Source: a virus (taxonomy: Duplodnaviria; Caudoviricetes). Taken from it: DNA of 64,000 nt. The translations under genes and the position numbers were made by a program. Position 1 is the stretch's first letter. Each line of letters opens with the position of its first letter. The notes under the pieces were generated by a model. That model made no database searches and was not told the origin of the DNA. It saw only the letters and a program-made list of their open reading frames with translations. Location of the stretch: IMG/VR virus record IMGVR_UViG_3300014326_000001, positions 9,088 through 73,087 of that record. One strand, given 5' to 3'. This document shows positions 3,040 through 63,356 of this stretch, piece after piece.

Positions 3040-3110
3040 TCAACTTACCAACACGCGAGCCGCAGCGAGCGGTACAGCCGAGCAGGTTAAGTAGTGAGTT
3101 CTGTTCTGCA
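3040..3110. repeat. attC-like palindromic element, copy A (forward)
   Basis: Aligns end to end with copy C (TCAAC.TACCAACAC..GCGA...GGTACA.CC.AGC...AGTA.TGAG); starts just after TAG 3036. Confidence 0.7.
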
Positions 3111-3147
3111 CGTCCCCCAACTGATTTGTTTACCAAGGAGAACGAGT

Positions 3148-3480
3148 GTGAGTGAGCCTCAATTTGACTTTGAGTTTGCCATTACCCCTCGGGTCGCAAA
3201 AAGTGGCAGCGCATGTGGATTGGAAGCTGTTTTTGGATCGCTAACCTACGAGGCGTTGGAGTTCCACGGAAGCGATACTTCGCGCCGCTTTCGCCGACGT
3301 TGGACTGACCGGCAATTTCACGCTGCCATTCAGGACGTTTGGAATCACGGCTATCGCATCGTATCAGTGTTGAAAAACCGCGCACCGGAGCCGGGGACAA
3401 CGCCCGAGTTCCGCATAGAGAATTCCAACCTGTACGAAGGCCACGGGTCAGATATGAAAATCAAGGGGCAACTCCCATGA
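3148..3480 (+). CDS. hypothetical protein
   Basis: AAGGAG RBS, GTG start; 3' end contains a decayed repeat copy. Confidence 0.7.
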   Translation: MSEPQFDFEFAITPRVAKSGSACGLEAVFGSLTYEALEFHGSDTSRRFRRRWTDRQFHAAIQDVWNHGYRIVSVLKNRAPEPGTTPEFRIENSNLYEGHGSDMKIKGQLP

Positions 3481-3992
3481 CTGATCTATCCGTTAGTGAA
3501 GTAGAAGCGATGCTGGCGAAACTGACCGCACAGGGCGTATGGCATCCCTATGATCGAGGCATTGGGTGGGAAGCTCACCGCGAGGCTACCTGTGTCCCTG
3601 AGTGCCTAGAACTCAACATGCAGGACAAGGAAACGTTCAAGCAGGCTGATGCCGAGTTCATCGCCGCCGCCCCTCAGATAGCTAAACAGTACCTTGAGGT
3701 AGTCAAAGAGAACAGCGATCTGCGGCTGGGTGGGCCATGCACCTACAAAACAGTGATCGAGAGCATGGAGATGCTGGAAGCCGCCGGAATGGGTACAGAG
3801 GGCAAACCGAACACGCTTTGGGCTATGACACAGGAGGCTATTGAACAACTCGCCGCCCTCCGCAAAGAAAGAGATCGATTAGTGTCTACGCTGGAAGGTC
3901 GCGCTGAAGAAGAAATGAAAATGCTTGCTGAGGTCGCCGCTGAAAACGACGAATTGCGCGCAGAGCTAGAACGGCTGAAAGGGGAGAAATGA
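3477..3992 (+). CDS. hypothetical protein with C-terminal coiled coil
   Basis: ATGA overlap; ADAEFIAAAP motif common in phage early (Ead/Ea22-like) proteins. Confidence 0.75.
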   Translation: MTDLSVSEVEAMLAKLTAQGVWHPYDRGIGWEAHREATCVPECLELNMQDKETFKQADAEFIAAAPQIAKQYLEVVKENSDLRLGGPCTYKTVIESMEMLEAAGMGTEGKPNTLWAMTQEAIEQLAALRKERDRLVSTLEGRAEEEMKMLAEVAAENDELRAELERLKGEK

Positions 3993-4678
3993 AAACTAAG
4001 AATCCAGAACAGAAGGGTAAGGCTAAAACTGCACCGAGCCTCTCAACAGTTGTGGAGAGCGGCGAAGCGCACGCAGTAGCGGGCTTGGCGGTGTGCCCAT
4101 TCTGCGGAGTCAAAGCAGAGGAATCAGCGCGACCGCATTGGATTCACATCATGCATTTACATGACTGCTTTATCGCGCTTCTCGCCCAGCGGGACATGTA
4201 CATCCCGCGTGACGAATGGTTGGCAGCGTGGAACACCCGAGTAGTAAGTGGTCTTCCAGCGTGGCAACCGATTGGGGCGGGACTACCAAAGGCGGGAGTC
4301 CCTGTACTGGCGTTCTTCCGCTATGCCTCAACGGGCAAAGGTCGCGTGGTTCGCGCCATGTACGCGCCAAGCCTGACTCTCACAGAAGAAGATTGGGGAG
4401 ATTTTCAAAGCGGCGCGGATTACGACGAAGCAACTGACGCGACCTATTGGCCGGAAGGTTGGTACGAAAGGAATGAATACGAAGAAACGAACTGGAGGCT
4501 ATCGGAAGACGTGACGCACTGGATGCCGCTCCCTGCGCACCCGATCACACAAGCTGAGGGTGGGTCTCCATCTCAGGACGTACCCGAATCGCTCGCTCCT
4601 GAAACTGAGTCTGTTTCTTCTGCTGAATCTATGCGTACTGCAGAAGTAAGTCAGGGAGAGGAAACAGAAAATCTTTAG
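3989..4678 (+). CDS. Lar-like (restriction alleviation) Zn-ribbon plus DUF551 mosaic protein
   Basis: CPFCG...AAWNTR and W.PI...LP...VTHWMPLP motifs. Confidence 0.75.
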   Translation: MKTKNPEQKGKAKTAPSLSTVVESGEAHAVAGLAVCPFCGVKAEESARPHWIHIMHLHDCFIALLAQRDMYIPRDEWLAAWNTRVVSGLPAWQPIGAGLPKAGVPVLAFFRYASTGKGRVVRAMYAPSLTLTEEDWGDFQSGADYDEATDATYWPEGWYERNEYEETNWRLSEDVTHWMPLPAHPITQAEGGSPSQDVPESLAPETESVSSAESMRTAEVSQGEETENL

Positions 4679-4743
4679 GTTAATGGGAACCAACTGCACC
4701 ATGGCTTTTAACGGTTGTTATTCTGAAATCATTTTGGAGGTGA

Positions 4744-5121
4744 GTGGTTGTGAAGCTAAATCGCAAGAGCGTGTTCGCAAGGTTCTACCTGTTGGCTGGC
4801 GATGAGTGGAATTTGCCAGAGGACTTTTGCTCCTTCTTTTGGGGGTTAGTTGAACGCGCCCTAAAAGTAATCATCTTTGTTGCGGTATGCCTATTCATTA
4901 TCTGCTTCTTTGTTTACGGGGTTATTCACGTCGTCATGGCGGGATGGAGACACCCGACGATCTCCGCGACCGCCCTAGCGTCTGCATTCGTCATCGCCGG
5001 AGGGTTCTGGCTGGCTTACCGCCGAGGCGTAGCGAGCGCCGCGAGCGACTTACTGAAAATTGTAAACACGAAGATCGACTCAGTCAGAAATCGCTACTGC
5101 CTCCGAATAGAGTGGCACTAG
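4744..5121 (+). CDS. membrane protein (two TM helices)
   Basis: GGAGG RBS; two hydrophobic stretches; start may be GTG 4750. Confidence 0.75.
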   Translation: MVVKLNRKSVFARFYLLAGDEWNLPEDFCSFFWGLVERALKVIIFVAVCLFIICFFVYGVIHVVMAGWRHPTISATALASAFVIAGGFWLAYRRGVASAASDLLKIVNTKIDSVRNRYCLRIEWH

Positions 5122-5123
5122 CG

Positions 5124-5190
5124 TCAACGTACCAACACCGCGAAGCGGGTACAACCTAGCCCGATTCAGTAATGAGGGTTGTGCAGCATT
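5124..5190. repeat. attC-like palindromic element, copy C (forward)
   Basis: TCAAC...CCGCGAAGCGGG...CCTAGCCCGATT...TAATGAGGGTTGTGCAGCATT, just after TAG 5121. Confidence 0.8.
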
Positions 5191-5236
5191 GATCGACGTT
5201 TCAGTTCTTGGATTTATTCTTGAGAGGGAGAAAGAA

Positions 5237-5659
5237 ATGGATAACAAAACTACAGACTTAAAAGGTGATGAGGAACAAAACCCAGCTTCTCCATCTGCTG
5301 AATCACGAGCCACTGGTGCGTTGAGTGCTGCCCTTGACCGCCTTATGGCCGTGTTCAATGAAGCGTCTGACGAGCGATACGAGAACCTAAAAGAATGGGA
5401 GAATCTCGGTCGGCGTTGGCAGAGCGAAGGAGACGGGTACGGCTACAACTTTCATCAAGGAATGGCCGCTGGCGCAAACTGGTGCGATATTTATTACCGC
5501 CGCGTGGGGCGAGAAATAGAAGCGATCCGCAAGGAGTTCACTCAAGCTACAGCGTCACCCGCTTCGGGTGCGCCTCTCTCCAGAGAGGGAGGGCAAGGGC
5601 AATACTGTGAACACCATACTTACCGTTCACTGTGTCCAGCGTGCAGCGGGTTGAGCTAA
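5237..5659 (+). CDS. hypothetical protein flanked internally by repeat copies
   Basis: GAGGGAG RBS before ATG 5237 (frame open from TTG 5189). Confidence 0.75.
   Translation: MDNKTTDLKGDEEQNPASPSAESRATGALSAALDRLMAVFNEASDERYENLKEWENLGRRWQSEGDGYGYNFHQGMAAGANWCDIYYRRVGREIEAIRKEFTQATASPASGAPLSREGGQGQYCEHHTYRSLCPACSGLS
5539..5593. repeat. attC-like element, copy L (in frame inside CDS)
   Basis: CACTCAA...GCGTC-ACCCG CTT CGGGT-GCGCCTCTCTC aligns with copy I at 63278. Confidence 0.75.
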
Positions 5660-5667
5660 GAAACGTG

Positions 5668-5757
5668 ATGACTATTAAAGGCGAATCGTTTGGACGCGGT
5701 GACGTAATCTTCGTTGTGGTTATTTTGATTCTGATCGCGCTCGCCCAAAGATGCTAA
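5668..5757 (+). CDS. 29-aa membrane peptide
   Basis: MTIKGESFGRGDVIFVVVILILIALAQRC read by hand; below ORF-track cutoff. Confidence 0.5.
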   Translation: MTIKGESFGRGDVIFVVVILILIALAQRC

Positions 5758-5760
5758 AGC

Positions 5761-5826
5761 TTCCAACGCACCGGAAGCGGGAAGCGGAGACCTAGCCCGA
5801 TCAAATTGAGAGTATTGTGCAGCATG
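5761..5826. repeat. attC-like element, copy D (forward)
   Basis: CCAACGCACCGGAAGCGGG...CCTAGCCCGATC...TGAG...TTGTGCAGCATG; final ATG starts the next gene. Confidence 0.8.
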
Positions 5827-5961
5827 AATAAGAAACGCCTGATCCCCTTTGTCATCTTCTTACTATTGTTCTACTTCTATTACGTAATGGAACAACCAGT
5901 AGATATTTGTCCAGTAGAGTTAAAATCAGTTGAAGTTAAAGACGATCTGAGCAGGTATTGA
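5824..5961 (+). CDS. 45-aa membrane-anchored peptide
   Basis: MNKKRLIPFVIFLLLFYFYYVMEQPVDICPVELKSVEVKDDLSRY read by hand. Confidence 0.6.
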   Translation: MNKKRLIPFVIFLLLFYFYYVMEQPVDICPVELKSVEVKDDLSRY

Positions 5962-6035
5962 AATGCAGCAAAAAGCTCCTAGCTGCCCCCACCGTTTGAG
6001 AAAGCCCCGCTTCGCGGAGGCAGAAAGTTGAGAGG
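5962..6035. repeat. attC-like element, copy J (inverted)
   Basis: Reverse complement reads CTCTCAAC...CCGCGAAGCGGG...TGCTGCATT, matching copy C. Confidence 0.7.
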
Positions 6036-6037
6036 TT

Positions 6038-6301
6038 ATGAATCTTAGCGTTAAAACATGCGAGCTACTTACAGTGGAGAATGCGCTCACGCAGTCAGAG
6101 CGCGAGGCCATTTCAGGACGACCACAAACCTTAATCGCCGGAGATACAGGGAGCATTTTTATCGGTTGCAAGGGCGACTTGGTAAAGTTCCGCGAGCGCG
6201 TAGGAATAGCAATTTGCATGGTTCGTGCGGCGTGGTTTCTCGTGCTACACGGATTTACTAGCATTTCGTTCACGAAAAAGACAGACGGAAAACTCCAATG
6301 A
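6038..6301 (+). CDS. hypothetical protein
   Basis: GAGAGG RBS supplied by the end of repeat J. Confidence 0.65.
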   Translation: MNLSVKTCELLTVENALTQSEREAISGRPQTLIAGDTGSIFIGCKGDLVKFRERVGIAICMVRAAWFLVLHGFTSISFTKKTDGKLQ

Positions 6302-6549
6302 TTAAACTATCAGACAACGAAATCATTCATGAAAGCCCTACAGCACGAGAAATCGCGCGGGAGGCTGTACGGGTTAGCCGGAGCAGGAAAAAGGCTCTCA
6401 AGGGCATTTACGGCGCAGTACGAGCAGCCACAATCAGAGAATCAACCCGCCCCCGCTACCTTCCGCATGGTGCGTTCCAATTTTGGTGGGAGCAAGATGT
6501 TATCCGTCCTCGCGTTGGCGCTATCGAAGCAAGCCTTTACCCAAAATAA
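6298..6549 (+). CDS. hypothetical protein
   Basis: ATGA overlap, 83 aa. Confidence 0.7.
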   Translation: MIKLSDNEIIHESPTAREIAREAVRVSRSRKKALKGIYGAVRAATIRESTRPRYLPHGAFQFWWEQDVIRPRVGAIEASLYPK

Positions 6550-6554
6550 AGATA

Positions 6555-6583
6555 TTGACAAGCGGTGTTGACGTTGATAGGAT
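6555..6583 (+). promoter_or_regulatory. sigma70-type promoter (probably leaderless)
   Basis: TTGACA-N17-TAGGAT, 8 nt before ATG 6592. Confidence 0.65.
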
Positions 6584-6591
6584 ATAGCGTC

Positions 6592-6768
6592 ATGGAAGAG
6601 AAAACGTTATCACGGCAGAGGCGGTGGGCGATTAAGAACCAAGCCAAAGGCCGTTGTCCTATCTGTGGAAAGAAGTGCGCCCCTGCTTTCAGGTGTAAGA
6701 AACACGCTAAGGCGCAAAAGAAGATTAACCAAGAGTATCGTCAGAAGTTGAAGGAAGGTAAGGGATGA
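6592..6768 (+). CDS. small basic Zn-finger protein
   Basis: CPICG...C..H, K/R-rich. Confidence 0.7.
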   Translation: MEEKTLSRQRRWAIKNQAKGRCPICGKKCAPAFRCKKHAKAQKKINQEYRQKLKEGKG

Positions 6769-6989
6769 ACAACGCGCTATTTAGAATCTGTCTCTTCCTG
6801 AAGTGGGCGACTGCGATGGTCAGCGGCAGTTTGGTGGCGCTCATTGCGGTTCACTTTGGCCGTAACGCTTGCTTCTTGGCAGCTGGCGCGACTCTGAGCG
6901 GACTTCTTGGCGGGGCGTGCTGTGTCTTAAAAGCGGCAATTCACGTCTACGGCGACCCTGAATGGATAAAGAGTCTACGCGAGGAATGA
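6765..6989 (+). CDS. small membrane protein
   Basis: ATGA overlap; two hydrophobic segments. Confidence 0.65.
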   Translation: MNNALFRICLFLKWATAMVSGSLVALIAVHFGRNACFLAAGATLSGLLGGACCVLKAAIHVYGDPEWIKSLREE

Positions 6990-6992
6990 ATC

Positions 6993-7256
6993 GTGGGTGA
7001 ATCAAAATCCATAATCCTTGAAGCAGAAGTTCATTCCTTCCCTGCCGATCCGGTCGATGAGCCAATGTGGGGGTATCCTGATGACGAACAGCGCGAACCT
7101 GCTCCTTGTTGTGTAGAGTGTGATTATTCTGATCTACAAGAATGGGAGTGGGAAATGAAGCAAAGAACTCTCGTTGCGGATCAACTAGAACTCTCCGAGC
7201 CGCCGCTTCGCGGTCGGAGTAACTTGAGTGCCCCCGCGCCTTGGGAGCGTTCATGA
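6993..7256 (+). CDS. hypothetical acidic protein
   Basis: 87-aa ORF; last third is read through repeat copy K. Confidence 0.55.
   Translation: MGESKSIILEAEVHSFPADPVDEPMWGYPDDEQREPAPCCVECDYSDLQEWEWEMKQRTLVADQLELSEPPLRGRSNLSAPAPWERS
7150..7232. repeat. attC-like element, copy K (inverted)
   Basis: GGGAAATGAAGCAAAGAACTCTC is 21/23 identical to the reverse complement of 63334-63356; CCGC TTC GCGG hairpin; ends TTGAGTG. Confidence 0.75.
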
Positions 7257-7588
7257 GCGATTTAATAAATATCGAGAAAGAACTTGTGCGCCTCGGCGGT
7301 GCGCTTGATCTTCTGACCACGGATTTTGAGGGTCTGTGCCGCCGCGCCGCCGATGCTCGCTCCGACTACGATATTGCATGGGCAAAAGCGTTACTCAAAT
7401 CGAACGGTAGCGCAAAAGACATAAGAGAATCCGAAGCCGTGCAAGTTGTCGAAACCGAGATGCGCGAAGCTCGCATAGCCGAAGCAATTAGGGATGCTGC
7501 TAAAGAAAGAATTCGCGCTCTTGAGTCGCTGCTCACTGTTCATCAATCCCGCCTTAAATGGCTTGACGAAGGAAAACGATTTGCATGA
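7253..7588 (+). CDS. helical coiled-coil protein, possibly a recombination mediator
   Basis: All-helical 111 aa, directly upstream of the exonuclease; function inferred from context only. Confidence 0.6.
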   Translation: MSDLINIEKELVRLGGALDLLTTDFEGLCRRAADARSDYDIAWAKALLKSNGSAKDIRESEAVQVVETEMREARIAEAIRDAAKERIRALESLLTVHQSRLKWLDEGKRFA

Positions 7589-8367
7589 GCCTCCCTCGCG
7601 TTGAAGAAATCTTATTTGAACATTTGATCGCGGAACGCGAGACGCGAGAACGTGCGCCTTCTCTGTTGCCGGACACGCTTCACGCCAACGCTTCATCTGC
7701 CGGGGGCTGCGCTCGCGCTGTCGGACTGCGCATGGCAAAGCTGGAAGGCGAACCCGTCAGCGCCGACGCTCTGTTCAACTTCTACATCGGGGACGCAATT
7801 CACGACAAGATTCAAGCGGCCATGCTTGCTAAGATTCCCAAGGCAGAGAAAGAAGTTAACGGAGTTATCGAGGACTTCATCACCTGTCGCGCCGATCTAA
7901 AATATCCTGCTGAAGATTCAAAGAGCGTATGCTGCGAAATCAAGTCCACTTCGGACTTCGGATTCAAACTTGCCACTGGCGCAAAGTTGAAATCTAACGG
8001 TCAATGGAACAAGAAAGACCAAAAGGCAGAAGGGCCAAAACGAGAACATATCCTTCAAGTTGGTATCTCTGCCAAGTCTATTGACGCTGACTATCTAGCG
8101 ATTGTTTACGCTCGGAAAACAGCGGCCAAAGATGAACCAATTATACATGAGTGGCGATTCAAAGTGGAGGATTTTGAGGGCGCAATTCAGGATGAAATTG
8201 CGCGGCTAAAACACATTGTCGAACTAGTGCGCGGGGGGCGCATACCGGATCGAGAATATCAAGGGGGAGTAATTGACAACCCAAAAACAGTTCGCTTCCC
8301 GTGTGGTTATTGTCAGTACTTGAAACCATGTCTGACGTTAGGCGCAGGGGAAGTGGAAATCAAATAA
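7585..8367 (+). CDS. Cas4-like PD-(D/E)XK exonuclease
   Basis: N-terminal C-x-R, G-x-x-I-H, RADL...EIKS nuclease motifs and C-terminal CGYCQYLKPC Fe-S cysteines. Confidence 0.8.
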   Translation: MSLPRVEEILFEHLIAERETRERAPSLLPDTLHANASSAGGCARAVGLRMAKLEGEPVSADALFNFYIGDAIHDKIQAAMLAKIPKAEKEVNGVIEDFITCRADLKYPAEDSKSVCCEIKSTSDFGFKLATGAKLKSNGQWNKKDQKAEGPKREHILQVGISAKSIDADYLAIVYARKTAAKDEPIIHEWRFKVEDFEGAIQDEIARLKHIVELVRGGRIPDREYQGGVIDNPKTVRFPCGYCQYLKPCLTLGAGEVEIK

Positions 8368-8396
8368 CAATCTAACCCAAGTAAAGGAACAAACCA

Positions 8397-9224
8397 ATGA
8401 AAGGTTTCCAAGAAAAAACAACGGGTGACGGAACTTTCTTCGTCATCAAACACCACACAATTTGCCGCGAATCGAAAACCCCGCAAGAGGGCTTTCATTC
8501 AATCGAGACAGTTAACCCGCGCACTGGCGATAAGGTAACAAAATACATTCAGGAATTCAGTTCGCTTGAAGCGATGATCACGAAGATCGAATGGTATGAC
8601 ACCGATCAAAAGTACGAAACGCGCTATCGAGGGTTCAAGATTCACCTTGACGCAAGCGGGAAACATGGCGTTCTCGATCTTCCAATCAACGCTCGCGTCA
8701 CAAGTCGGTTTATGAAGTTGGCCGAGAATATCGACTTCACAAAGCCTGTGGAGTTTCGAGCATGGCACGATAACAAGTCAGACTCGACAGCTTTACTAGT
8801 CGCGCAGAACGAAGTCAGCGTGCCGCAGAAATACACGCGAGAGAATCCCGGCGACATGCCGCCTCCGGTACAGAGAGCGTCTACAGGCAAGTGGAGCTAC
8901 GACGATCAAATGGAATTCCTGCACAAGCGCATGATGGAAGTTGTTATCCCGAAAGTTGCAGCGACCGCGCCAGCCGCAACGCAGGAACCTACGCAGGGAA
9001 ACGCGCTGACCGAACAATCAGCTACAGCCGACGCCAAGTTAATCGGAAAAGTCAAAGAGGCTCTAACTGACCTTTCTGACCATGACGACTATAAGGAGCG
9101 AACACGGAGCCAGTTGCTAGATGAGTTCTTCGGGACAACGAAGTTTGCGGAAGTCGAAGCGATGCCGCCTGATGTCTTGAAAGCGGTACTCAAAAAGATT
9201 GACGAGATAATCGTTCCCTTCTGA
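8397..9224 (+). CDS. putative ssDNA-binding/annealing protein
   Basis: AAGGA RBS; beta-rich N-terminal part, flexible linker, acidic IIVPF tail; between nuclease and replication genes. Function is a guess. Confidence 0.5.
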   Translation: MKGFQEKTTGDGTFFVIKHHTICRESKTPQEGFHSIETVNPRTGDKVTKYIQEFSSLEAMITKIEWYDTDQKYETRYRGFKIHLDASGKHGVLDLPINARVTSRFMKLAENIDFTKPVEFRAWHDNKSDSTALLVAQNEVSVPQKYTRENPGDMPPPVQRASTGKWSYDDQMEFLHKRMMEVVIPKVAATAPAATQEPTQGNALTEQSATADAKLIGKVKEALTDLSDHDDYKERTRSQLLDEFFGTTKFAEVEAMPPDVLKAVLKKIDEIIVPF

Positions 9225-9284
9225 AAATAAGTATTGTGTCGAGGGGCGAGTTGTTCTAAAATTCGCCCGTTGACAATTTGAGAT

Positions 9285-9314
9285 TTGACGCGCTAATGGC
9301 ATGGTGCGTAGAAT
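9285..9314 (+). promoter_or_regulatory. promoter of the replication operon
   Basis: TTGACG-N18-TAGAAT. Confidence 0.6.
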
Positions 9315-9325
9315 CAACCGCAAGT

Positions 9326-9429
9326 GACGGCTTTTCTTGAGCCGCGTTTCGCTACCAAAGTCTTTTGACCAACTCTTGCGGGAAGGTTCTAAGATATGCC
9401 AAATGCGGCGCGGTTCAAGAAAGGCCGTT
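9326..9429 (+). promoter_or_regulatory. structured 5' leader occluding the initiator RBS
   Basis: 9326-9346 pairs fully with 9409-9429 (21 bp, 3 G-U); right arm contains AAGAAAGG 9 nt before ATG 9434. Confidence 0.75.
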
Positions 9430-9433
9430 TTCT

Positions 9434-12060: not shown

Positions 12061-12562
12061 ATTTCGTTCACGATTGGAAGCCCGTTACGCAGTTTTCTTT
12101 GACGCGCTTAACGAACCTTGGGAGTACGAGAAAGAGGGATACGTTTTGGAGGACGGAACGCTTTATCTTCCCGATTTCTGGATGCCGAATCTACAGTGTC
12201 ATTTGGAAATCAAAGGCCAACTGCCGACACAAGAAGAATACGACAAGACTCAAGGGTTGGCGCACGGAACAAATAAGGCCGCAGCAATTATCCACGGATT
12301 GCCGGGAGAACAATGGGGCATTCTGTATTGCGTAGACGACACTGACTCGTCGGGAGGTTGGGGAACTTGGCAATTCCGTTTCGGAGTAAACGCAAGCAGC
12401 GAATTAGCGTTCTTGGTAGATCAGTTTGACCCGGAACGGAGGATTCTATATTCCGTCCCTTATGAAAAAATATTGCGCACGAGTTATCGCTGGATGGAAA
12501 CCAACGCGCTGCAACATGCGGCCACGCAAGCCAAAGAAGAACGATTTGAGAGGCGACGATGA
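12026..12562 (+). CDS. PD-(D/E)XK-type endonuclease
   Basis: FRSRLEARYAVFFD...WEYE.EG...YLPDF...LEIKG. Confidence 0.8.
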   Translation: MKAIETRYASHRFRSRLEARYAVFFDALNEPWEYEKEGYVLEDGTLYLPDFWMPNLQCHLEIKGQLPTQEEYDKTQGLAHGTNKAAAIIHGLPGEQWGILYCVDDTDSSGGWGTWQFRFGVNASSELAFLVDQFDPERRILYSVPYEKILRTSYRWMETNALQHAATQAKEERFERRR

Positions 12563-13608: not shown

Positions 13609-13677
13609 CCACTCAACGTACGTGAGCGGGACGCGGAGAGCGATCAAGATACGCCCCGCGAGGGTTGTGCAGCATGA
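13609..13677. repeat. attC-like element, copy E (forward)
   Basis: CCACTCAACGTAC...GCGAGGGTTGTGCAGCATGA immediately after TAA 13608. Confidence 0.8.
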
Positions 13678-13692
13678 TCCTGAATTCTTTGA

Positions 13693-54179: not shown

Positions 54180-57100
54180 TGGAACACGTACCCCGTTTTC
54201 TCGCGGGACTTCCTTTCTGTTCGTTGCTGTCTCTCTTGTCGTTCAACTCTTGGAAGTGTCCCGCGCTGCATTCCTAACGCCTCAAATCTCTTCCTTACTT
54301 CGTCCTGTTGATCAGGAGGCATGGTATCTATCAGCGCGGATTTCTTCTGAAGCATATCTTTTAATTCTGCTTTCTGTTCAGGGGTAGCCACAGAATAAAC
54401 TATCACTGCTTCTCTTGCTCCGAGTCGGTTGAAATCCTCCTGAAGTCGAGTCTTATTTCTCGCTGCCAGAATTCCTTTAGCTTGACGTTCAGTTATCTTT
54501 GCTCCCATTGCGGCTATGTCTGCTGATACATCTTCACCTTTACGTGAACGGGCGCGTAGCTGAGATTTCTGCCTGTCTGTTTCAATTTGTTCTTCCTCTC
54601 GGCCTTGCCGGGGAGGCATTGATTCTCGGACAAACTTGCGCGACATTTTTTCGGCCAACGTAGTTGGTTTTTCTGCTGCTTCGGGATAACTCCCCGTGCC
54701 AATCCCTACGAACGTTGGAAGAGACTTTAATCCACCTACGATTCCGCCCTGCTTTAATCCTTCATACACGTCCTTAGCAGGTAGCGGGGTAATCAAGTCC
54801 TTGGCTTCCCGTGCGTAACTAAATTTCCTCCCCGCAAAATCTTCTCCCGCAATTCGATCAACAACTGGAGCTACGGCAGGGTTCAGTTTCGAGCGTGCAA
54901 ACTTCTTGGTCATATCAGACAGGCTTTCCCCTGCGTAATAATCCCCCGCCTGCAATCGCTGACTGTTTACCGGACTTAGCCCGCGTGACATGTTGATTAT
55001 GTAGCGTAAGGGTTGTTGAAGTCCCGTGAGTTGATCGTAAACCGTATCCCCGAATCGGATTTTCAGAAACTCGCTGTCGTCAGGGTCGAGACTTACCTTC
55101 CCACCCGCCGCTTTCACTGCTGTAAGTATCGCCGCCGTTGCCCCCAAAAACTTTACGTTGTCTTTAATCATTCTCGCCCGTGCGCCCGCTGGCATTCTCG
55201 CAATCGTCACAGGGTTGATCATGTTGTTGAGCAGTTGGACGCGGCTTGCTAACAATCGCGGAGAGAACATAGCGATATTTAATGCGGGAGCAATCGCATT
55301 CCCTCGACGCCCTAAACTTCCGCGCCCTGTACCCGTGTTAATCAATCGCGCTATCGCTTGTAATTCAGCGGGATTCCTTCGTTGGGCCTCAGTTAGCCCT
55401 TCCAACATTTGCTTGCCCATTGAAAGTCTTTGAGCATCAAGAAACGAGACAAAGGTACGTTCTGAAAATCCAGCAATCTGTTTCGCCACTGGAACGTAGT
55501 CAAGATATTCCTTGCCTAGATAGCCTTCTTCATGGTGACTTAGATGCGGGTCTTGTTTATCAACTCCGGTGAATTCAACTCCTGCCTTTTTCAACGTCTC
55601 GAAATCTTTGTCAGCCTTAATTTTCGCCTCTACGTTGCGCCATCCTAAATCGCTGAACGACTTCACCATTTCCTTGAAAGGTTTTGCTCCTCCTTCAATC
55701 GGATGCGTGATCGCGTAGAATCCACCTTGACGAAAAACCGCTGATATGTCTCCGATAGATTTTAAGGTTTTAGGAATCGATGCCGCCTTTGCCAACTCAT
55801 CGGAAATCATTCCACCACGCCCACGAGTAGCGCGATACTTCATCTTGGCGTATTCAGCCTTAATCTTTTCAACTTCCTTCTGCGCGTTCAAAGTCTCTCG
55901 TGTGTATCTTGGTGCTTCTCGTTTTGCCTTCTCACTGAAATCGCCTTCAACCATTCGGCGTTCAAGTTCTGCTTTCTCTTTTTGGAGCGTCTTTAGTCTG
56001 TTTTGGTTCTTGGTGAATTCTGCCTTCGGGCCTTCTTGTCGTGTTGTTCGTCGCCCCGCCTGAACGTCCTCTTCTTTCAAGAGCCGATTGATTTCAGCAT
56101 TGACTTCAGTGACGCGCTTTTGAGCCTCAGAGCGTTGTTTTGCTGTTCCACCGTACCCAACTAAGGCTTCTGCTACCTGACGCCGTGTAACGCCTAAATC
56201 CTTCACTAGATCATGCGCTTCATCCAGTAACGCTTCAGCTTTTAGTCCGATATTTGCTTTCGCTCGGTTGTGAACGTACTTGATTAACTCTTTCGTCAAT
56301 CGGCCTTCAGGGTCGATTCCCGCAAGACCGCTCGCATGAATGTTTCCAGATTTAATTCGGGCAAGTTCCGCAACGATATTCTGTTTGATGAGTACCGCTT
56401 CTTGGTCAAGACTCGCCTTTGTCTCGGTTCGTTTTCGCTGTCTTCCGACCTTATTCAACGTCGCTTCAAACTCGGCCTTAATTGCACGTTCTTCCGCTGC
56501 GTCTCGTGCCTTCTCGGCCTTTCCAAGTCTCGCGTGAAGGTCTTTCACTTCCGCTAATTGTTGTTCGGTTAACGGAGCGCGTTTGTCTTTCTTTAGCCCT
56601 GCAACCATCTTCACAAGGGAGAAATCTTCCGCTAAAGCTCGTTTTCTTGCCGTGCCCGCTCTTGACCACTCTGCTCCCGCTAAATCATCGGCCTCGGAGA
56701 TTTTGTCGTACTCAGACAGTCTCGCATCGAGTTCTGCTGACTTCTCAGCAATCACTTGTGGGTCTTTCGCTTCGTACAGTTCTCGGTTCAGCCGATCAAT
56801 CTCATTCTTTACTTCCACAGCGCGGAGATTCACTTGCATAGTCTCCACGTTGTTGAAGTTCTTTCCACCTTTCAATGCCTGCTCAATCAGTACATCGGGA
56901 GCACGTGGGTCGGCAGCGTTCTTCTGTTTCGCTTCGGCAAGCACCTCCTCAGATTTAACACGAGGAACTTGTTCCAACTTGGGCAGTCCAAGAGCTTCAC
57001 GATCTGCTTGCATTGAAGCGTCTTTTGGAGAAGTGGTAGAAGGGGCGGCGTCCCCAGCGGAAACCGCCTCCTTGAACGTTTTTGGGTTGACTTTGGGTTC

Positions 57101-60004
57101 TTGCGCCACGGGTTCTAGCGGTAGAGCAGTGGCATTGATACCCTCCTCTCTTACTTCAGTTTTAGGAGCGAGAGTTTCTACTTGAGGGGAAGGTCGAGAT
57201 GATTGCTCGTATTCAATGTCCCAATTCGTTTGAGTGCGCGGATCGGTAACACGAGTATCTGCGCCGCCCATGAAGTTTGGGGTTCCCTCTCGATACCAAA
57301 AACCGTTCTTGCGGTAGCGGTCACCCATCTTTACATCTGGAACATCACCGCCGCCAAGTCCACGCCCTGCAAATTGTTCAATCAGCGATTCAGGTGCGGT
57401 TGGGTTATCTCGCCGCGCCTCTATCTTGACCCACTCAGGCGCGGATGGTTTAGGACTTACAGAAGATTCCGGTTTATTACCGAGTGCGTTTTCAACGTTC
57501 AGGGTTTGGGGCGAAGCGACCTTGCTGCTTGAAAGCTGCGCCGTCTTATTTGCAATCCATTCATACGCGGGAACGGTGTCCATCCCCAAAAGTTGAGCTG
57601 CGCGAATACGGTGATTCCCTTCAATGCCCCCCGCGCCGATTGCGATAGGCTGGACATATCCTGAATCGCTAATGGCCTCTGCCAATTTCCTTGACTCAGA
57701 TTCAAAACCTCTCTTTGAAGCCACACTTGGCTCAAGCGTTAACTCGGCAAGTGGAACGTCACGCAAACGCCAGCGCCCAGCATCGCTATTGACAATGTAT
57801 TTGCCTTTAGAGTCTTGCAGTGAATCGAGGGCGTCACGTTGAACCCTAGCGGGAAGTTCGTCCGTGCTGAGAGTGTCAGACGGTTCGCGCTTAACTTTCG
57901 TTTGCTCAATAAGGTCAATCAGTCTTTGGGCGTCGTCAGGTTCAACGTTTTGTCTTTCAGAACCCTGAACTGGAGACTGCGAGGTCTGTGCTTCATTCCT
58001 TGCACGCTCCAACGCTCTTTCTGTATCAATAATTCCTGCTGCTCTTGCATTAGGATCGTCAGTTGGAAACTCACCGGATTTCATGTCAGCAAGTTTTGCT
58101 TCTAGGATAGCTACTGACTGTTCGGCAGGACTTTGTTTTGGTTCAAGGTATTCATCTAGTGGATTTTCTGTGGGAGCTTCAGGCTTCAGAGGAATCATCC
58201 GCTCGTTTCCCCTGCCGCGTAAGTCGGATTTTTTCACATAATGAATCGCCTCTGGGTTATTTACTTCTGCGACTTTGATTCGGCCTCGACGTGCTCCGCT
58301 TTGGTCGGGCACGACTTCAATTTCTCCGAATTGGAGATGTTGAAATCGTTGCGGTTGAGCGGACGGTTCGCTTGCAATGCTTCCTTGTTCACTCGTAGAT
58401 TCAGGTGGTCGCACTCCACTAGCGTCACGCTCTGGGGGTTGATTCCGCAACTCTGTAGAAACTCTGTCCAATCTTGCGTTTCGTCTCCCTTCAAGTGCTT
58501 GTTTTCCGGCAGGGATTCCGCGCATGAGAGCATTCGTTACGCCCCCTGATAGCGCATCTTGTGGCGTTGCCCCCGCCGCTAAATCCAGTGCCGCCGTTCC
58601 AAGTCCCGTCGCTCCTGCTTCCGTTGCTGCCTTTGTTAGCCCTTGTCCAATGCCGGGGATTTCAAACGCCAGTCCCGTCAACGCGCCGTGTGTAGTTGCT
58701 GGAGCTACAGGTCGTCTTGCTCCATACGCCTCAGTTCCCGCCCCCGCGCCAAATGCTACCGGAGCAGGTACACCTGCACTCATTAACGCCAACTCAGGAG
58801 CAGTTGCAATGAATCCCGATGCTACGTTCTGAACAAACTTACTTGCTTGGTTTCTATCTGCACCTTCGGCCTCAGCGGCTTGTCTTAATGCCTCTGCATG
58901 GAGTCTAAAGGCGTCTGCAGCGGCTTCTGTACCGGGAGCACCTGTCGCCCTTCCTAGTCCCGCAAGTTTATTCACAAGCGGAGCTATGCCCTTGGCCAGA
59001 GTTTCTGAAGTCCACTTGGATTGCCCTGACTCTGGCAACGCTCCGGTACTTTTGAGTGCGCGGCGATACTCTTTTTTCAACCGATCAATTTCAGGTTTGT
59101 CTCTCGCGTATTGCTCTGCCTGTTTCGCGGCTTCCTCTTCTTGTCCACGTTCAACTGCTGCCCGTGAGGTTATCGCCGCCTCGCGTTCCTCTTGGCTCAT
59201 GTTTCCCATGTTGTAAGCAGGGAGACCGGGGAGTCCTGTCCTGTTCGCAGCGGCTTGCTCACGGGTCATTTGCGAGGCAATGCGTCCCCTGCGATCAGTC
59301 TCTTTCACGCCAGATTGAGCGGCTTGTCGTAACGCTTCTTCGATGCCCGCGCTTCGTTGCGTAGGTTGCGGTGCCCCATTCCCGGCAACCCCGCCCGTTA
59401 CTCCCGCAAACGGAGATAGACCTTTGATAGACGTTCGCGCCATACCTCGACCTTGAGGCTTGATTGCTGCCGTTCTCGCGGTTGTATCTGCTGTGATTTT
59501 ATTCAGAGCGTCCAAGATGGAAGGCTGTGCGCCTACACTTGGTTGGCGTTCTACTCTTGGAATGAGAGATTTATTTGTAACGGGCTTAGTTACAGTTGGC
59601 GGATCAAGGTAGTCGTCTAGTTCGCCTTTGGGCTGGATGGGCTTTTGGGTGTCATCGCCCGCGTACTCCAAATGGACGTGTGGCCCTCCCCAGACTTTCT
59701 GCAACGATCCGTCTTTCCGGCGCGGTCGCGTGCGCTCATCGCGCAATAACAATCCACGTTCTGCCGCTTTCTGGCTGAGAGTCTTTACCGTGTTGTCATC
59801 GAACGCACCCGAACCTTTAATGTCTACCGCGTTCCCTGAGTAGTGAAGCGAACCAACGTTGTGCCGACCACCCGTGGTCGAACCCATTGTCAATTTATTT
59901 TCTTTTGCAAACTGAGAGAGTACGTCCAAGTGAGAAGCCGTGGGCTTAACTCGCGCTCGCGGTTTTGGTGCAGGGTCTAAATAAGCGTCCAACTCATCAG
60001 GCAT
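54176..60004 (-). CDS. large polyvalent internal virion (ejection) protein with M15-like peptidase and ParB-like domains
   Basis: 1942 aa; HYSGNAVD...HVHLE; QPI.I...GIEGNHRIRAAQLLGM; helical C-terminal region. Confidence 0.8.
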   Translation of the reverse strand: MPDELDAYLDPAPKPRARVKPTASHLDVLSQFAKENKLTMGSTTGGRHNVGSLHYSGNAVDIKGSGAFDDNTVKTLSQKAAERGLLLRDERTRPRRKDGSLQKVWGGPHVHLEYAGDDTQKPIQPKGELDDYLDPPTVTKPVTNKSLIPRVERQPSVGAQPSILDALNKITADTTARTAAIKPQGRGMARTSIKGLSPFAGVTGGVAGNGAPQPTQRSAGIEEALRQAAQSGVKETDRRGRIASQMTREQAAANRTGLPGLPAYNMGNMSQEEREAAITSRAAVERGQEEEAAKQAEQYARDKPEIDRLKKEYRRALKSTGALPESGQSKWTSETLAKGIAPLVNKLAGLGRATGAPGTEAAADAFRLHAEALRQAAEAEGADRNQASKFVQNVASGFIATAPELALMSAGVPAPVAFGAGAGTEAYGARRPVAPATTHGALTGLAFEIPGIGQGLTKAATEAGATGLGTAALDLAAGATPQDALSGGVTNALMRGIPAGKQALEGRRNARLDRVSTELRNQPPERDASGVRPPESTSEQGSIASEPSAQPQRFQHLQFGEIEVVPDQSGARRGRIKVAEVNNPEAIHYVKKSDLRGRGNERMIPLKPEAPTENPLDEYLEPKQSPAEQSVAILEAKLADMKSGEFPTDDPNARAAGIIDTERALERARNEAQTSQSPVQGSERQNVEPDDAQRLIDLIEQTKVKREPSDTLSTDELPARVQRDALDSLQDSKGKYIVNSDAGRWRLRDVPLAELTLEPSVASKRGFESESRKLAEAISDSGYVQPIAIGAGGIEGNHRIRAAQLLGMDTVPAYEWIANKTAQLSSSKVASPQTLNVENALGNKPESSVSPKPSAPEWVKIEARRDNPTAPESLIEQFAGRGLGGGDVPDVKMGDRYRKNGFWYREGTPNFMGGADTRVTDPRTQTNWDIEYEQSSRPSPQVETLAPKTEVREEGINATALPLEPVAQEPKVNPKTFKEAVSAGDAAPSTTSPKDASMQADREALGLPKLEQVPRVKSEEVLAEAKQKNAADPRAPDVLIEQALKGGKNFNNVETMQVNLRAVEVKNEIDRLNRELYEAKDPQVIAEKSAELDARLSEYDKISEADDLAGAEWSRAGTARKRALAEDFSLVKMVAGLKKDKRAPLTEQQLAEVKDLHARLGKAEKARDAAEERAIKAEFEATLNKVGRQRKRTETKASLDQEAVLIKQNIVAELARIKSGNIHASGLAGIDPEGRLTKELIKYVHNRAKANIGLKAEALLDEAHDLVKDLGVTRRQVAEALVGYGGTAKQRSEAQKRVTEVNAEINRLLKEEDVQAGRRTTRQEGPKAEFTKNQNRLKTLQKEKAELERRMVEGDFSEKAKREAPRYTRETLNAQKEVEKIKAEYAKMKYRATRGRGGMISDELAKAASIPKTLKSIGDISAVFRQGGFYAITHPIEGGAKPFKEMVKSFSDLGWRNVEAKIKADKDFETLKKAGVEFTGVDKQDPHLSHHEEGYLGKEYLDYVPVAKQIAGFSERTFVSFLDAQRLSMGKQMLEGLTEAQRRNPAELQAIARLINTGTGRGSLGRRGNAIAPALNIAMFSPRLLASRVQLLNNMINPVTIARMPAGARARMIKDNVKFLGATAAILTAVKAAGGKVSLDPDDSEFLKIRFGDTVYDQLTGLQQPLRYIINMSRGLSPVNSQRLQAGDYYAGESLSDMTKKFARSKLNPAVAPVVDRIAGEDFAGRKFSYAREAKDLITPLPAKDVYEGLKQGGIVGGLKSLPTFVGIGTGSYPEAAEKPTTLAEKMSRKFVRESMPPRQGREEEQIETDRQKSQLRARSRKGEDVSADIAAMGAKITERQAKGILAARNKTRLQEDFNRLGAREAVIVYSVATPEQKAELKDMLQKKSALIDTMPPDQQDEVRKRFEALGMQRGTLPRVERQERQQRTERKSREKTGYVFQ

Positions 60005-61947: not shown

Positions 61948-61985
61948 AAAAACAACTCGACCCCGCGATTGCTCACGAGGTCAAG
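61948..61985 (-). terminator. Rho-independent terminator
   Basis: 13-bp stem CTTGACCTCGTGA-GCAA-TCGCGGGGTCGAG (3 G-U), then TTGTTTTT. Confidence 0.85.
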
Positions 61986-62088
61986 AAGTGTTCACTGAGA
62001 ACTTTTCGGCGCGTCCAAGTTGGCAACACCCTACCACAAAATAGTTGTTGCCTTCAATGTAAATCGGTCGTATTCTTGTCACGTTCAC
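61981..62088 (-). CDS. 35-aa peptide
   Basis: AGGTGA RBS; MNVTRIRPIYIEGNNYFVVGCCQLG...; stop lies in the terminator stem. Confidence 0.45.
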   Translation of the reverse strand: MNVTRIRPIYIEGNNYFVVGCCQLGRAEKFSVNTS

Positions 62089-62527
62089 TGGGTCTCACCT
62101 GTTTACTGCTTACCCTGCGGTCTCTTGATTCCCAGCAAAATCGACGATAGTTACCGAAATACAAAGATCGTCCGTGCGCGGTGGCGCTTGTTGGAATATG
62201 AAGCTAACCGAACCCCTTACTGATAAACCTGCGTCAAGCCAGTCTGTAAGTAAGAGTCTGCGGAGAAACAACCGTTCGGGATTGCTGTTAGCCCTGCGTC
62301 CAGAGAAAGCACGTTAATAACATCGGAAGGTCTGAACACCCGTTAGACCGATGCGGCCAACTCAGATATGGTAAACGGCTCCTCGTTGGCAGAGGATGAC
62401 TGGCTGAGTAACCCGTCTGGAGAACCCAACGCAAGTACTGTGAGAACTCATTGGCGTTCCACAAAAGCTGCTAACCTGCTCCCAAATCGTGGTGGGTTAG
62501 CTGCGCCTGCTCGAATCTATTACCGTA

Positions 62528-62665
62528 CCACTCAACCAGATGTTGAATCCTGATGCGAGGCTGAAAAGCCGAGTCCTTATTGACGTTCTTTGGTGGGATA
62601 GAGGCTACGTTCCAGCGCGTTAAGCGGGGATTCAGGCGGCTAAGTTGAGAGGGGTTTGCAGCATT
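62528..62665. repeat. attC-like element, copy H (long form)
   Basis: CCACTCAAC...GAGAGGGGTTTGCAGCATT ends with a multi-stem interior. Confidence 0.6.
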
Positions 62666-62724
62666 TTACTAAGGATTTCTCACTATCCTATGGTAAAATT
62701 CCCGTCTAGTTCTTTGAACGGCCA

Positions 62725-62928
62725 TCAGCCGACAATCTCTACCGTGATAATTGCTGCTGGGCATATCCACTTTCGGCCATCTTCTACCGCGAATCCTTCA
62801 CGCGACAGCCTGCGGGCAAACTGCTCAAGGGAGTCGTCGCTAGTGAAATTGTAATCCATGTAGCCATCAGCCTGAGTAAAGAATCCCAGCGCCCCGACCT
62901 CGTAAACCCGTACTTTGTACTTGCTCAT
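62725..62928 (-). CDS. hypothetical protein
   Basis: GGAGGGAG RBS. Confidence 0.75.
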   Translation of the reverse strand: MSKYKVRVYEVGALGFFTQADGYMDYNFTSDDSLEQFARRLSREGFAVEDGRKWICPAAIITVEIVG

Positions 62929-62955
62929 TTCTCCCTCCGTATCCTCTTTGGCCGA

Positions 62956-63261
62956 TCACTTTTTGAAAATTGGAATATAGCGTTCACGGTCTGCCGTGAT
63001 AAGTTTCTGCCGCTTGCGAGCGAGTCGCCTGCTGTCTACGCCCTCAATCGCCAGTGCCCCCAAAGCTACCGCCCCGACACTCAATCCGACCACAAGCAGC
63101 CCGACTATCACGATCACAGCCGGAATCCACAGCGGCGATAACACCCACCACCACGACCAATCAATCTTGCCCAACAGCTTGAGCGTGATAAACACGATGG
63201 TCAGCAAGCCACAAAAACCGATGCCGCCGCTAGATGAACTTGACGATGCTTTATCGCTCAT
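62956..63261 (-). CDS. conserved phage membrane protein
   Basis: GIGFCGLLTIVFITLKLLGKIDWSWWWVLSPLWI. Confidence 0.85.
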   Translation of the reverse strand: MSDKASSSSSSGGIGFCGLLTIVFITLKLLGKIDWSWWWVLSPLWIPAVIVIVGLLVVGLSVGAVALGALAIEGVDSRRLARKRQKLITADRERYIPIFKK

Positions 63262-63276
63262 ATTTCCCCTTCAGAG

Positions 63277-63356
63277 CCACTCAACCCTCCGCGTCGAGCG
63301 TTTCGCTCGCGCCTCTCTCAGTAGTCACAGAATGAGGGTTCTGTGCTTCATTTCCC
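63277..63356. repeat. attC-like element, copy I
   Basis: CCACTCAACCCTC...GAGCG TTT CGCTC...AATGAGGGTTCTGTGC; AACCCTC/GAGGGTT inverted repeat. Confidence 0.8.

Follow-up and report, generated by a model that had tools for sequence, protein, structure and literature searches.

Dispersed 70–100 bp repeats with a conserved bulged hairpin at gene boundaries of three phages

A dispersed repeat of 70–100 bp was found in the 73-kb soil phage G0 and in the two IMG/VR phages G1 and G2, with 9–17 copies in each. The analysis covers a 64,000-nt stretch of G0, referred to as the window, and its comparison with the other genomes. It confirms that the repeat family is genuine and common to the three phages, and covariation shows that the base pairing of its hairpin, not the hairpin sequence, is under selection. 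We tentatively regard the elements as a lineage-specific family of modular, non-coding repeats that border small early or accessory genes. Equally tentatively, they are best explained as a REP/BOX/RPE-like dispersed repeat, whose hairpin would be read single-stranded and which would be tolerated because it carries stop, Shine-Dalgarno (SD) and start signals.

The original prediction had listed 11 related elements in both orientations. The sequences were found at the positions it gave and its motif counts were reproduced, with four occurrences of CCTAGCCCGA in the window (5155, 5791 and 22815 on the plus strand, 13729 on the minus strand) and three of CCGCGAAGCGG (5138 on the plus strand, 6017 and 7213 on the minus strand). 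Furthermore, the 73-kb genome contains 13 occurrences of CACTCAAC, versus about two expected from genome length. Nine of the 11 copies proved robust (3040, 5124, 5761, 5962, 7150, 13609, 13693, 22782 and 63277), whereas two are just partial: 5539 retains only the 5' half and the hairpin, and 62528 has both ends around an expanded interior. Beyond this list the window holds three further copies on the minus strand (1606–1681, 5264–5331 and the weak 14716–14784), and three minus-strand copies lie in the 9 kb left of the window (genome positions 5715–5792, 6181–6278 and 6701–6790), which gives 17 copies for G0 with robust, partial and weak ones included.

A first profile of 10 copies, all from G0, recovered independent copies in two other phages (L035:908–976, E 5e-6; L036:3209, E 2e-3). 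A 20-sequence profile yielded six more non-seed copies (E 4e-7 to 5e-4) and no match at E ≤ 1 in five shuffles. At E < 0.01 the final profile matched 14 copies in G0, 11 in G1 and 9 in G2, and none in G3–G5 or in 10 shuffled sets; profile searches of TerL relatives also gave no copies. The covariance model (CM) R2 produced 27 matches at E ≤ 0.1 in the 428 kb searched, every one in G0–G2. Both the comparison with shuffled controls and the covariance model had been proposed as tests in the original prediction, and both bear out a real family. The copies in the window are as follows, the strand of a copy being the one that reads TCAAC, hairpin and CAT in this order.

1606–1681, minus strand: K-type copy (nhmmer E 2e-5) with the hairpin CCG-A-CGC-CTT-GCG-CGG, overlying the 5' end of the gene for an HNH endonuclease (ORF 1649–2152; PHROG 374, E 9e-33).
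3037–3112, plus strand: copy A (nhmmer E 3e-8; CM E 6e-11), intergenic, its first base directly after the stop TAG at 3034–3036.
5121–5190, plus strand: copy B (CM E 7e-15) with the hairpin AC-A-CCGC-GAA-GCGG-GT, starting at the stop TAG 5119–5121 and ending in GAGGGTTGTGCAGCATTG, an SD plus TTG in frame with ORF 5237–5659; 94% identical to G2:61212–61247 over 36 nt.
5264–5331, minus strand: copy N, hairpin-less (nhmmer E 6.5e-9; CM E 7e-5), within the N-terminal coding part of ORF 5237–5659.
5539–5620, plus strand: copy D, partial, with 5' box, hairpin GCG-T-CACCCG-CTT-CGGGTG-CGC and a diverged 3' block, within the C-terminal coding part of ORF 5237–5659; it shares 74% identity with copy I across 42 nt (repeat family D6).
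5757–5826, plus strand: copy C (nhmmer E 4.5e-5; CM E 3e-7), spanning the gap from the stop TAA 5755–5757 to the ATG at 5824.
5960–6038, minus strand: copy J (CM E 7e-14) with the hairpin GCC-T-CCGC-GAA-GCGG-GGC, spanning the gap from TGA 5959–5961 to the ATG at 6038; in the direction of the genes it forms an ORF of 22 codons (ATG 5964 to TGA 6032).
7148–7236, minus strand: copy K (nhmmer E 1e-12; also matched by the CM), within the C-terminal coding part of ORF 6993–7256; 84% identical to G1:54835–54878 over 44 nt.
13607–13678, plus strand: copy E (nhmmer E 2e-6; CM E 0.025), starting at the stop TAA 13606–13608.
13690–13776, minus strand: copy F (nhmmer E 1.7e-9; also matched by the CM), forming a head-to-head pair with copy E at a distance of 12 nt and lying directly upstream of a sigma70-like promoter (13791–13820).
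14716–14784, minus strand: weak candidate copy, hairpin-less (CM E 0.0068; nhmmer E 0.054).
22779–22856, plus strand: copy G (nhmmer E 3.7e-9; CM E 1.4e-12), lying 6 nt ahead of a minus-strand PAS-domain gene (ATG 22772); in the direction of this gene it forms an ORF of 26 codons, the TGA of which overlaps that ATG.
62525–62666, plus strand: copy H, a long variant with the end boxes CCACTCAAC and GTTGAGAGGGGTTTGCAGCAT and an expanded interior, missed by the CM search; its 3' part alone scores (nhmmer E 0.012).
63274–63358, plus strand: copy I (nhmmer E 2.4e-10; CM E 7e-10) with the hairpin GCG-T-CGAGCG-TTT-CGCTCG-CGC, between minus-strand genes; the upstream 75-codon ORF (63507 to 63281) runs through it and stops at the TGA in GTTGAGTGG.

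A full copy consists, in this order, of the 5' box (TAG)CCACTCAAC, exactly 5 nt, a GC-rich bulged hairpin, the middle box CCTAGCNNGAT and the 3' box GGTTCTNTGCTTCAT(TWCC..GAATTC), and hairpin-less, half and expanded copies occur as degenerate forms. The hairpin is built from two to three outer pairs, one bulged A or T, three to six inner pairs and a 3-nt loop. This local helix of 7–9 bp in the 5' half is the only one that covaries: 89% of its cells are paired, CG, GC and AU pairs replace one another, and the inner stem is free of unpaired cells. Its covariation score of 0.323 compares with 0.116 in shuffles, none of 500 reaching the observed value, and pairing drops to about 40% once the partners are slid. 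A bulged hairpin follows TCAA(C/G) at a distance of 5 nt in 18–22 of 33 copies versus about 2% of all TCAA[CG] sites. Members of the same subfamily in different phages carry compensatory hairpin changes, e.g. CCGC/GCGG versus CTGC/GCAG, indicating a long-term constraint on each copy that is as compatible with a function for the phage as with mobility. The elements had been described as hairpin-rich and palindromic, which does not hold, since a single short hairpin is conserved and the minimum free energy of the whole element is close to that of dinucleotide shuffles (mean z −0.38 forward, −0.45 reverse).

The elements had further been taken for attC-like cassette sites. What stands of this comparison is the conserved single-strand hairpin, the location at boundaries of small accessory genes and the different, non-homologous neighbours across phages; the core sites, the pairing of the two halves, the mixed orientation and the link to a recombinase do not fit. 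A folded attC site is closed at its base by pairing of its core sites R'' (RYYYAAC) and R' (GTTRRRY), and forms over its whole length one imperfect hairpin (R''-L'' with L'-R') that contains extrahelical bases and an unpaired spacer in its centre; integrons carry arrays of such sites in the same orientation beside intI, attI and Pc. The present elements resemble them in size (65–100 bp), in a 5' box ACTCAAC that fits RYYYAAC in most copies, in a GTT near the other end, in the one extrahelical base of the conserved hairpin and in the small genes which they flank. However, the 3' box reads GTTCTGT or GTTGTGC instead of GTTRRRY, and R'/R'' complementarity and covariation are missing. The AAC...GTT pairing is not compensated: alignment A12 shows G in place of the C of AAC in 6 of 26 copies, opposite an unchanged G, and this helix is 73% paired only if 13 T-G cells at one position are counted. 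In addition, the one conserved hairpin is confined to the 5' half, and pairing between the two halves, which would give a whole-site hairpin with L boxes, is absent (z about −0.4). Copies lie in both orientations, once as a head-to-head pair and partly inside ORFs, and no array beside intI/attI was found. The tyrosine recombinase family PF00589 has no match in G0 or G1, the Pfam matches of G0 ORFs include no recombinase, and G2 carries one ordinary-looking integrase ORF. Identity with attC is disfavoured, as core-site fit, whole-element hairpin, uniform orientation and linked integrase are all lacking; it is exceedingly improbable that the elements are folded single-stranded sites at which an IntI-like tyrosine recombinase cuts G|TT to move promoterless cassettes.

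The three phages have just 4–8% of their sequence in common (tblastx), essentially the replication module, and a close relative was not present in the collections. Outside this module the only blastn matches between G0, G1 and G2 are element pieces of 30–46 nt (82–97% identity), which are non-syntenic and lie beside non-homologous genes; the elements are better conserved than the surrounding genes. Such boundary patches could act as passive linkers, by which general recombination swaps, deletes or inserts accessory genes with no dedicated enzyme. This role and distribution are known for the promoter-early stem-loop (PeSL) cassettes of T4-type phages, conserved boundary patches for the exchange of accessory genes, which hold a consensus sigma70 promoter and a terminator, all face one way and resemble one another closely enough for homologous exchange; their mini-circles have been demonstrated experimentally (PMC2839356, PMC4122927). 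Like PeSLs, the elements are repeated composite motifs of about 100 bp between the stop of a small ORFan and the next start, restricted to hyperplastic non-structural regions, with a conserved GC stem-loop and different neighbour genes. The sharing of elements among phages with unrelated flanking genes, and the RusA-like, endonuclease VII-like and other resolvase-like nucleases encoded by G0, would suit exchange of this kind. Nevertheless, we consider passive linkers unlikely. Exact matches of 10–12 nt within a genome and 30–46 nt between genomes are short for homologous exchange, mixed orientation would invert rather than swap genes, and selection for hairpin pairing is left unexplained. Furthermore, an element lies near just one of the four edges of the sole alignable block, the G1/G2 replication module. 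In contrast to PeSLs, the copies are far more diverged, partly lie inside coding ends and lack promoter and terminator. Three strong promoter-like sites on the plus strand within 1–20000 (6555, 9285 and 13791) are all outside elements, no U-tract follows the hairpin and orientation is mixed, so membership in the PeSL class was rejected.

With regard to placement, the copies occur among small early or accessory genes only, and none was found in any structural module, the 40-kb structural arm being empty. They occupy intergenic gaps or the N- or C-terminal coding ends of genes in different frames, at least 7 of the 17 G0 copies lying in ORF ends. The adjacency to stops and starts noted in the original prediction was confirmed: the stops at 3036, 5121, 5757 and 13608 abut the 5' end of an element, and the starts at 5824, 6038 and 22772 lie 0–6 nt from an element end. 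Of 33 copies, 21 have the frame NE(N/A)(Q/K)NPS... open and 15 use it; other frames, open in 13–20 of 33, are used as well. By our own count about 28 copies face one way relative to local gene direction and 13 the other, and orientations in the window alternate (B+, N−, D+, C+, J−, K−). This bias with respect to transcription, like the SD-ATG at the ends, may point to a function in expression, which counts against a mobile repeat.

A cis-acting expression element of early genes, i.e. a module of the mRNA that binds a phage or host protein, governs RNase processing or stability, or initiates translation, is a possible if doubtful explanation. T7 RNase III sites offer a comparison for hairpin elements acting on mRNA. 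Confinement to early, non-structural regions, one orientation in about two thirds of the copies (our count) and the covariation of the hairpin agree with such a role. In the majority orientation the element starts with AAGG(T)GA-ATG, and the 15 copies translated in one frame often lie within the first 5–35 codons of real ORFs; the opposite-orientation subtype ends in GAGGGTTGTGCAGC-ATG/TTG and supplies SD and start for the next ORF (copies B and C), and copies J and G are short ORFs that bridge neighbouring genes, touching or overlapping the adjacent stop and start. Conservation beside different genes is also known for SAS/ESAS of Cluster K mycobacteriophages, SAS being 13 bp long, located 3–7 bp before starts and nearly uniform in orientation (PMC3203893). 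The elements share with them the restriction to a phage lineage and to the non-structural genome half, an SD-like core by the ATG, an inverted repeat and neighbours independent of gene family. Unlike SAS they measure 70–100 bp, occur in both orientations, contain one covarying bulged hairpin and often lie within an ORF. An SAS/ESAS-like assignment was rejected on the basis of about one third of copies in the opposite orientation (our count) and of a variable place, copies being found after stops, across starts and in C-terminal ends. The same variability relative to the start codon argues against an expression element in general. Moreover, the third of well-formed copies that is antisense to local genes would give RNA in which the boxes are complementary and the bulge sits in the opposite arm of the stem. 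Finally, the elements contain no sigma70 hexamers, the hairpin is not followed by a U-tract and an Rfam search gave no matching family (Rfam holds no attC model).

Mini-hairpins of the GCGAAGC type are found at phage ssDNA origins. Selection of the hairpin as a single strand, and the fact that the replication module is the one large set of genes shared by all three phages with elements, would be consistent with replication-linked ssDNA signals (ssi-like priming or loading) for the common primase-helicase. We judge this highly unlikely. The distribution is patchy among contigs of the same primase lineage, L092, L093 and L100 (57–65% identity) having no copy in a flank of about 10 kb, and copies cluster in accessory regions away from the 40-kb structural arm. 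Since the relatives were found via the primase, its co-occurrence with the element is partly an artefact of the search route.

We therefore return to the dispersed repeat. REP/REPIN, pneumococcal BOX and Rickettsia palindromic elements (RPE) are likewise short, non-autonomous and modular, occur in both orientations with a conserved stem-loop, and form clusters, inverted doublets (as the E/F pair) and, for RPE, in-frame copies inside ORFs (review PMC10969869). REPs have a short hairpin behind a conserved 5' motif, to which the fixed TCAAC-N5 may correspond; RPEs encode a conserved peptide in frame in unrelated ORFs, and the present copies in ORF ends use more than one frame. In contrast, those families are chromosomal with tens to hundreds of copies, and the present one resides in lytic-looking phage genomes. 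REPs come with a cognate RAYT transposase, whereas no Y1/HUH transposase and no match to PF01797 (Y1 transposase, RAYT) was found in G0–G2; no enzyme able to move such elements was detected. Copies within one genome are mutually only about 50–57% identical and thus give no sign of a recent burst, which also counts against a mobile repeat, and neither an empty site nor an insertion polymorphism was seen. A classical MITE was rejected: direct repeats flanking the copies (target-site duplication) are not visible and terminal inverted repeats are absent, the 5' end TAGCCACTCAAC being unrelated to the reverse complement of the 3' end (GGGAAATGAAGC).

Selection on pairing suggests that a structure-specific protein would read the hairpin in single-stranded form, most likely as ssDNA, because one third of the copies have the opposite orientation with respect to transcription. 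New gene boundaries would have been reached by copy-and-insert or illegitimate recombination rather than through inherited positions. The copies probably persist as they are harmless at gene boundaries, with a stop codon at one end, an SD and start codon at the other and most frames open, and they may possibly serve as short homology patches for accessory-gene exchange.

A more active role is quite unlikely. Here, the elements would be sites of a hairpin-dependent DNA transaction, in which a structure-specific phage nuclease nicks ssDNA at the TCAAC-N5-bulged hairpin and moves or exchanges small accessory genes. Candidates for the nicking step would be the endonuclease VII-like or RusA-like proteins, or else the HNH endonuclease; in G0 and G1, copies lie in or next to the gene of the latter. 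If true, this would represent a previously undescribed, integron-like gene shuffling between co-infecting virulent phages that proceeds without an integron integrase.

The listed sequences of the original prediction, which had reported ~11 attC-like palindromic elements at gene boundaries, were present at their positions and the motif counts agreed. Nine of the 11 copies proved robust, the remaining two being a 5' half (5539) and an expanded variant (62528). Further copies were found in the window at 1606-1681, 5264-5331 and 14716-14784 (weak), and three more in the 9 kb to its left. Ten copies from this phage (G0) served to build a profile, which detected copies in two other IMG/VR phages, IMGVR_UViG_3300028831_000121 (G1, 62 kb) and IMGVR_UViG_3300018429_000002 (G2, 72 kb), both originally fetched via their primase genes. 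After three rounds the profile detected 14, 11 and 9 copies at E<0.01 in G0, G1 and G2, respectively; three TerL relatives and ten shuffled sets yielded no copy. The covariance model gave 27 matches at E<=0.1, all within G0-G2, in a search of 428 kb. The observation holds, is statistically sound and extends further than originally reported. Pattern scans of IMG/VR brought up nothing beyond G1, G2 and chance matches. Among relatives of the DnaN-like clamp, which are too divergent for an empty-site analysis, L074 holds no copy and L076/L077 one partial copy.

In the forward sense (reading TCAAC, hairpin, CAT) the element consists of the following parts:

5' box, forward sense: (TAG/TAA)CC(A/T)CTCAA(C/G)
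Spacer between 5' box and hairpin: exactly five bases, often NTACC
Hairpin: GC-rich, with 2-3 outer pairs, one bulged A/T, 3-6 inner pairs and a loop of 3 nt
Middle box, forward sense: CCTAGC(C/A)(C/A)GAT
3' box: G(A/G)GTTCT(G/T)TGC(T/A)(T/G)CAT, often extended by T(A/T)C(C/T)T..GAATTC

The bulged A/T is always followed by C, and the loops read GAA, TTT, CTT, GTA or GCA. This hairpin is the sole part of the element with structural support. In an alignment fitted to the model, which favors structure and lends the covariation figures that bias, 89% of the hairpin cells are paired, the pairs swap freely between CG, GC and AU, no unpaired cell occurs in the inner stem, none of 500 shuffles reaches the covariation score and sliding the partners lowers the pairing to ~40%. 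The same hairpins were seen in independent single-sequence folds and in a rule-based scan. The free covariation of the stem indicates that intrastrand pairing is under selection; a protein site on double-stranded DNA would instead conserve its half-site sequence. The subfamilies (K-, B-, J- and A-type) cross phage boundaries, their members differing by compensatory hairpin changes.

The proposed kinship with attC sites did not survive: four defining features were tested and none was found. The supposed AAC...GTT closing helix is made up of conserved letters, and a C-to-G change in six copies is uncompensated. Folding of the whole element, described as palindromic and hairpin-rich, gave mean z values of -0.38 and -0.45, hardly better than shuffles. 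Consequently, the element is a set of sequence boxes with one hairpin and not an imperfect palindrome; a long palindrome or closing helix was rejected on the uncompensated changes and the near-shuffle folding. The element also differs from a classical MITE, having neither terminal inverted repeats nor a target-site duplication, and no Rfam family reached its gathering score, nor did anything relevant turn up at E<=5.

All copies in G0-G2 sit among small non-structural genes. The predicted stop adjacency was confirmed for the forward copies A, B, C and E of G0, which begin either on the upstream gene's stop codon or right behind it. A subtype ending in GAGGGTTGTGCAGC-ATG/TTG supplies Shine-Dalgarno (SD) and start for the downstream sequence. 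Read on the mRNA, opposite-facing copies open with AAGG(T)GA-ATG, and some of them form short bridging ORFs. J, for example, starts 2 nt past the upstream stop and ends 5 nt short of the following start, and the ORF of G has a TGA that overlaps the ATG of a PAS gene. Other copies fall within real ORFs, in the first 5-35 codons, or in C-terminal ends (K, I, D). Fifteen copies use the frame NE(N/A)(Q/K)NPS..., which is open in 21 of 33; the element is also read in other frames, and arginine is always AGA. The constraint thus lies on nucleotides, not on a peptide, and a single conserved peptide was rejected since the reading frame differs among copies. With respect to local transcription, ~28 copies have one orientation and ~13 the opposite one, a count based on crude gene calls. 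One third of the intact copies are antisense to local genes, which makes a sequence-specific role confined to the mRNA hard to defend. A regulatory element is less likely than the reading favored below but a serious rival.

What the three phages share is limited to a few small genes and a replication module, which comprises an O-like initiator and a primase-helicase (primase 62-79% amino-acid identity; ~75% nucleotide identity). Their mosaicism is extreme, the structural modules being unrelated, and by tblastx just 4-8% of each genome is conserved among them. Outside the replication module the sole nucleotide matches are element pieces of 30-46 nt with 82-97% identity, which are non-syntenic, occur in either orientation and adjoin non-homologous genes. 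The element, 80 nt long and non-coding, is conserved above the level of almost every gene in these mosaic soil phages. The conserved G1/G2 block has four edges, only one of which falls within 200 nt of an element, and no empty sites or exact breakpoints could be seen among the relatives, which are too distant. G2 contains an integrase ORF (63895-64332); G0 and G1 have none. Three metagenome contigs of the same primase lineage hold no copies in ~10 kb of flank, which weakens the link between element and primase; in the primase tree the branching order of these groups is not resolved.

The G0 record, from a rhizosphere metagenome, is complete (73,087 bp) with direct terminal repeats, the window covering its bases 9088-73087, and megablast against deposited phages (INPHARED) gave no match. 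Among sequencing runs, no RNA run was listed as containing it; one DNA run, probably of the source sample and kept as contigs, showed a single contig and no joints. Genes were recognised for a large terminase, a lambda-O-like initiator, a primase-helicase, a DnaN-like clamp, several HNH endonucleases, a RusA-like nuclease (16659-17051) and an endonuclease VII-like nuclease (genome 7467-7853); none was recognisable for an RNA polymerase, a DNA polymerase, a recombinase or a transposase. Small early/accessory genes run rightward (genome 3.9-27 kb), structural and lysis genes leftward. A 24-nt unit, ATCGCGGCGTCAACATAACGCTTG, is repeated head-to-tail at least three times at 63921-64000, where window and genome record end; it may be part of the terminal repeat/packaging region or an internal repeat of the last minus-strand ORF.

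Three near-consensus, rightward sigma70-type promoters lie in the early region at 6555-6583, 9285-9314 and 13791-13820 (TTGACA/TTGACG, spacer 17-18 nt, TAGGAT/TAGAAT/TATGCT), the last directly after the E/F repeat pair. They suggest that G0 uses the host RNA polymerase. An ORF of 1942 aa (54176-60004, minus strand) adjoins the terminase genes, its only family match being a weak ParB_N-like stretch (residues 764-813, under the Pfam cut-off). An N4-type hairpin promoter was rejected, as no virion RNA polymerase is recognisable, this 1942-aa protein included, and the early regions have ordinary sigma70-like promoters outside the elements. As for a possible host origin of the repeat, an exact 21-mer common to G0 and G2 was absent from 596 Gb of prokaryote genomes, a negative that covers exact copies only, thousands of chance matches being expected for looser patterns. 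Primase relatives (40% identity) on element-free Phycisphaerae MAG contigs of 61% GC give a weak hint of a possible host.

The following HNH and HTH_17 genes were noted:

1649-2152, plus strand, G0: free-standing HNH gene (HNH_3/NUMOD4-type)
~24765-25433, plus strand, G0: same type
33001-33531, plus strand, G0: same type
54921-55520, minus strand, G1: HNH gene bracketed by inverted copies at 54824-54903 (plus) and 55686-55772 (minus)
L044:8613-8792 (genome, left of the window): HTH_17-like gene
L057:19122-19319: HTH_17-like gene
L060:10961-11155, minus strand: HTH_17-like gene

Some HNH genes lie on the strand opposite to their neighbours. One of G0 has an element copy over its 5' end, and in G2 copies lie near one such gene; at a local density of ~1 element/kb and with other G0 HNH genes devoid of copies, an HNH association is unsupported. 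The HTH_17 (excisionase/MerR-like) protein of 59-66 aa passes the Pfam cut-off in G1; hardly any other small protein is conserved across the three phages. The HTH_17 protein is a candidate DNA-binding partner; no link to the repeats was found.

Tentatively, we favor a dispersed structured repeat, whose hairpin and TCAAC box would be recognised on single-stranded nucleic acid and which would have spread among gene boundaries, its copies tolerated and partly co-opted because they supply stop, SD and start signals. Such a repeat resembles the dispersed, non-autonomous REP, BOX and RPE in orientation independence, non-syntenic positions, patchy distribution, degenerate or half copies, an inverted doublet and copies in ORF ends; these features together with the hairpin selection and the antisense copies speak for it. 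Against it count that neither a mobilising enzyme nor recent copies were seen and that individual subfamily members show long-term compensatory evolution, which fits a phage function equally well. A PeSL-like linker is a further serious rival, improbable to a greater degree than the regulatory element; PeSLs have promoter and terminator inside, whereas the element contains neither. The three explanations are not mutually exclusive, and the element belongs with the known phage and bacterial gene-boundary repeats, as a variant new to that class.

Accessory regions of phages carry the bulk of the anti-defence and host-takeover genes, and their turnover is very rapid. The question of what marks and moves such genes is old, dating to the 'linker' idea of modular evolution. 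The element is a non-coding module placed right at accessory gene ends, with a hairpin under clear structural selection. Should it prove mobile or recombinogenic, it would make gene shuffling in uncultured phages accessible to concrete tests; should it prove regulatory, phages would have a novel expression signal. In both cases the covariance model can serve to recognise members of this phage group in metagenome data.
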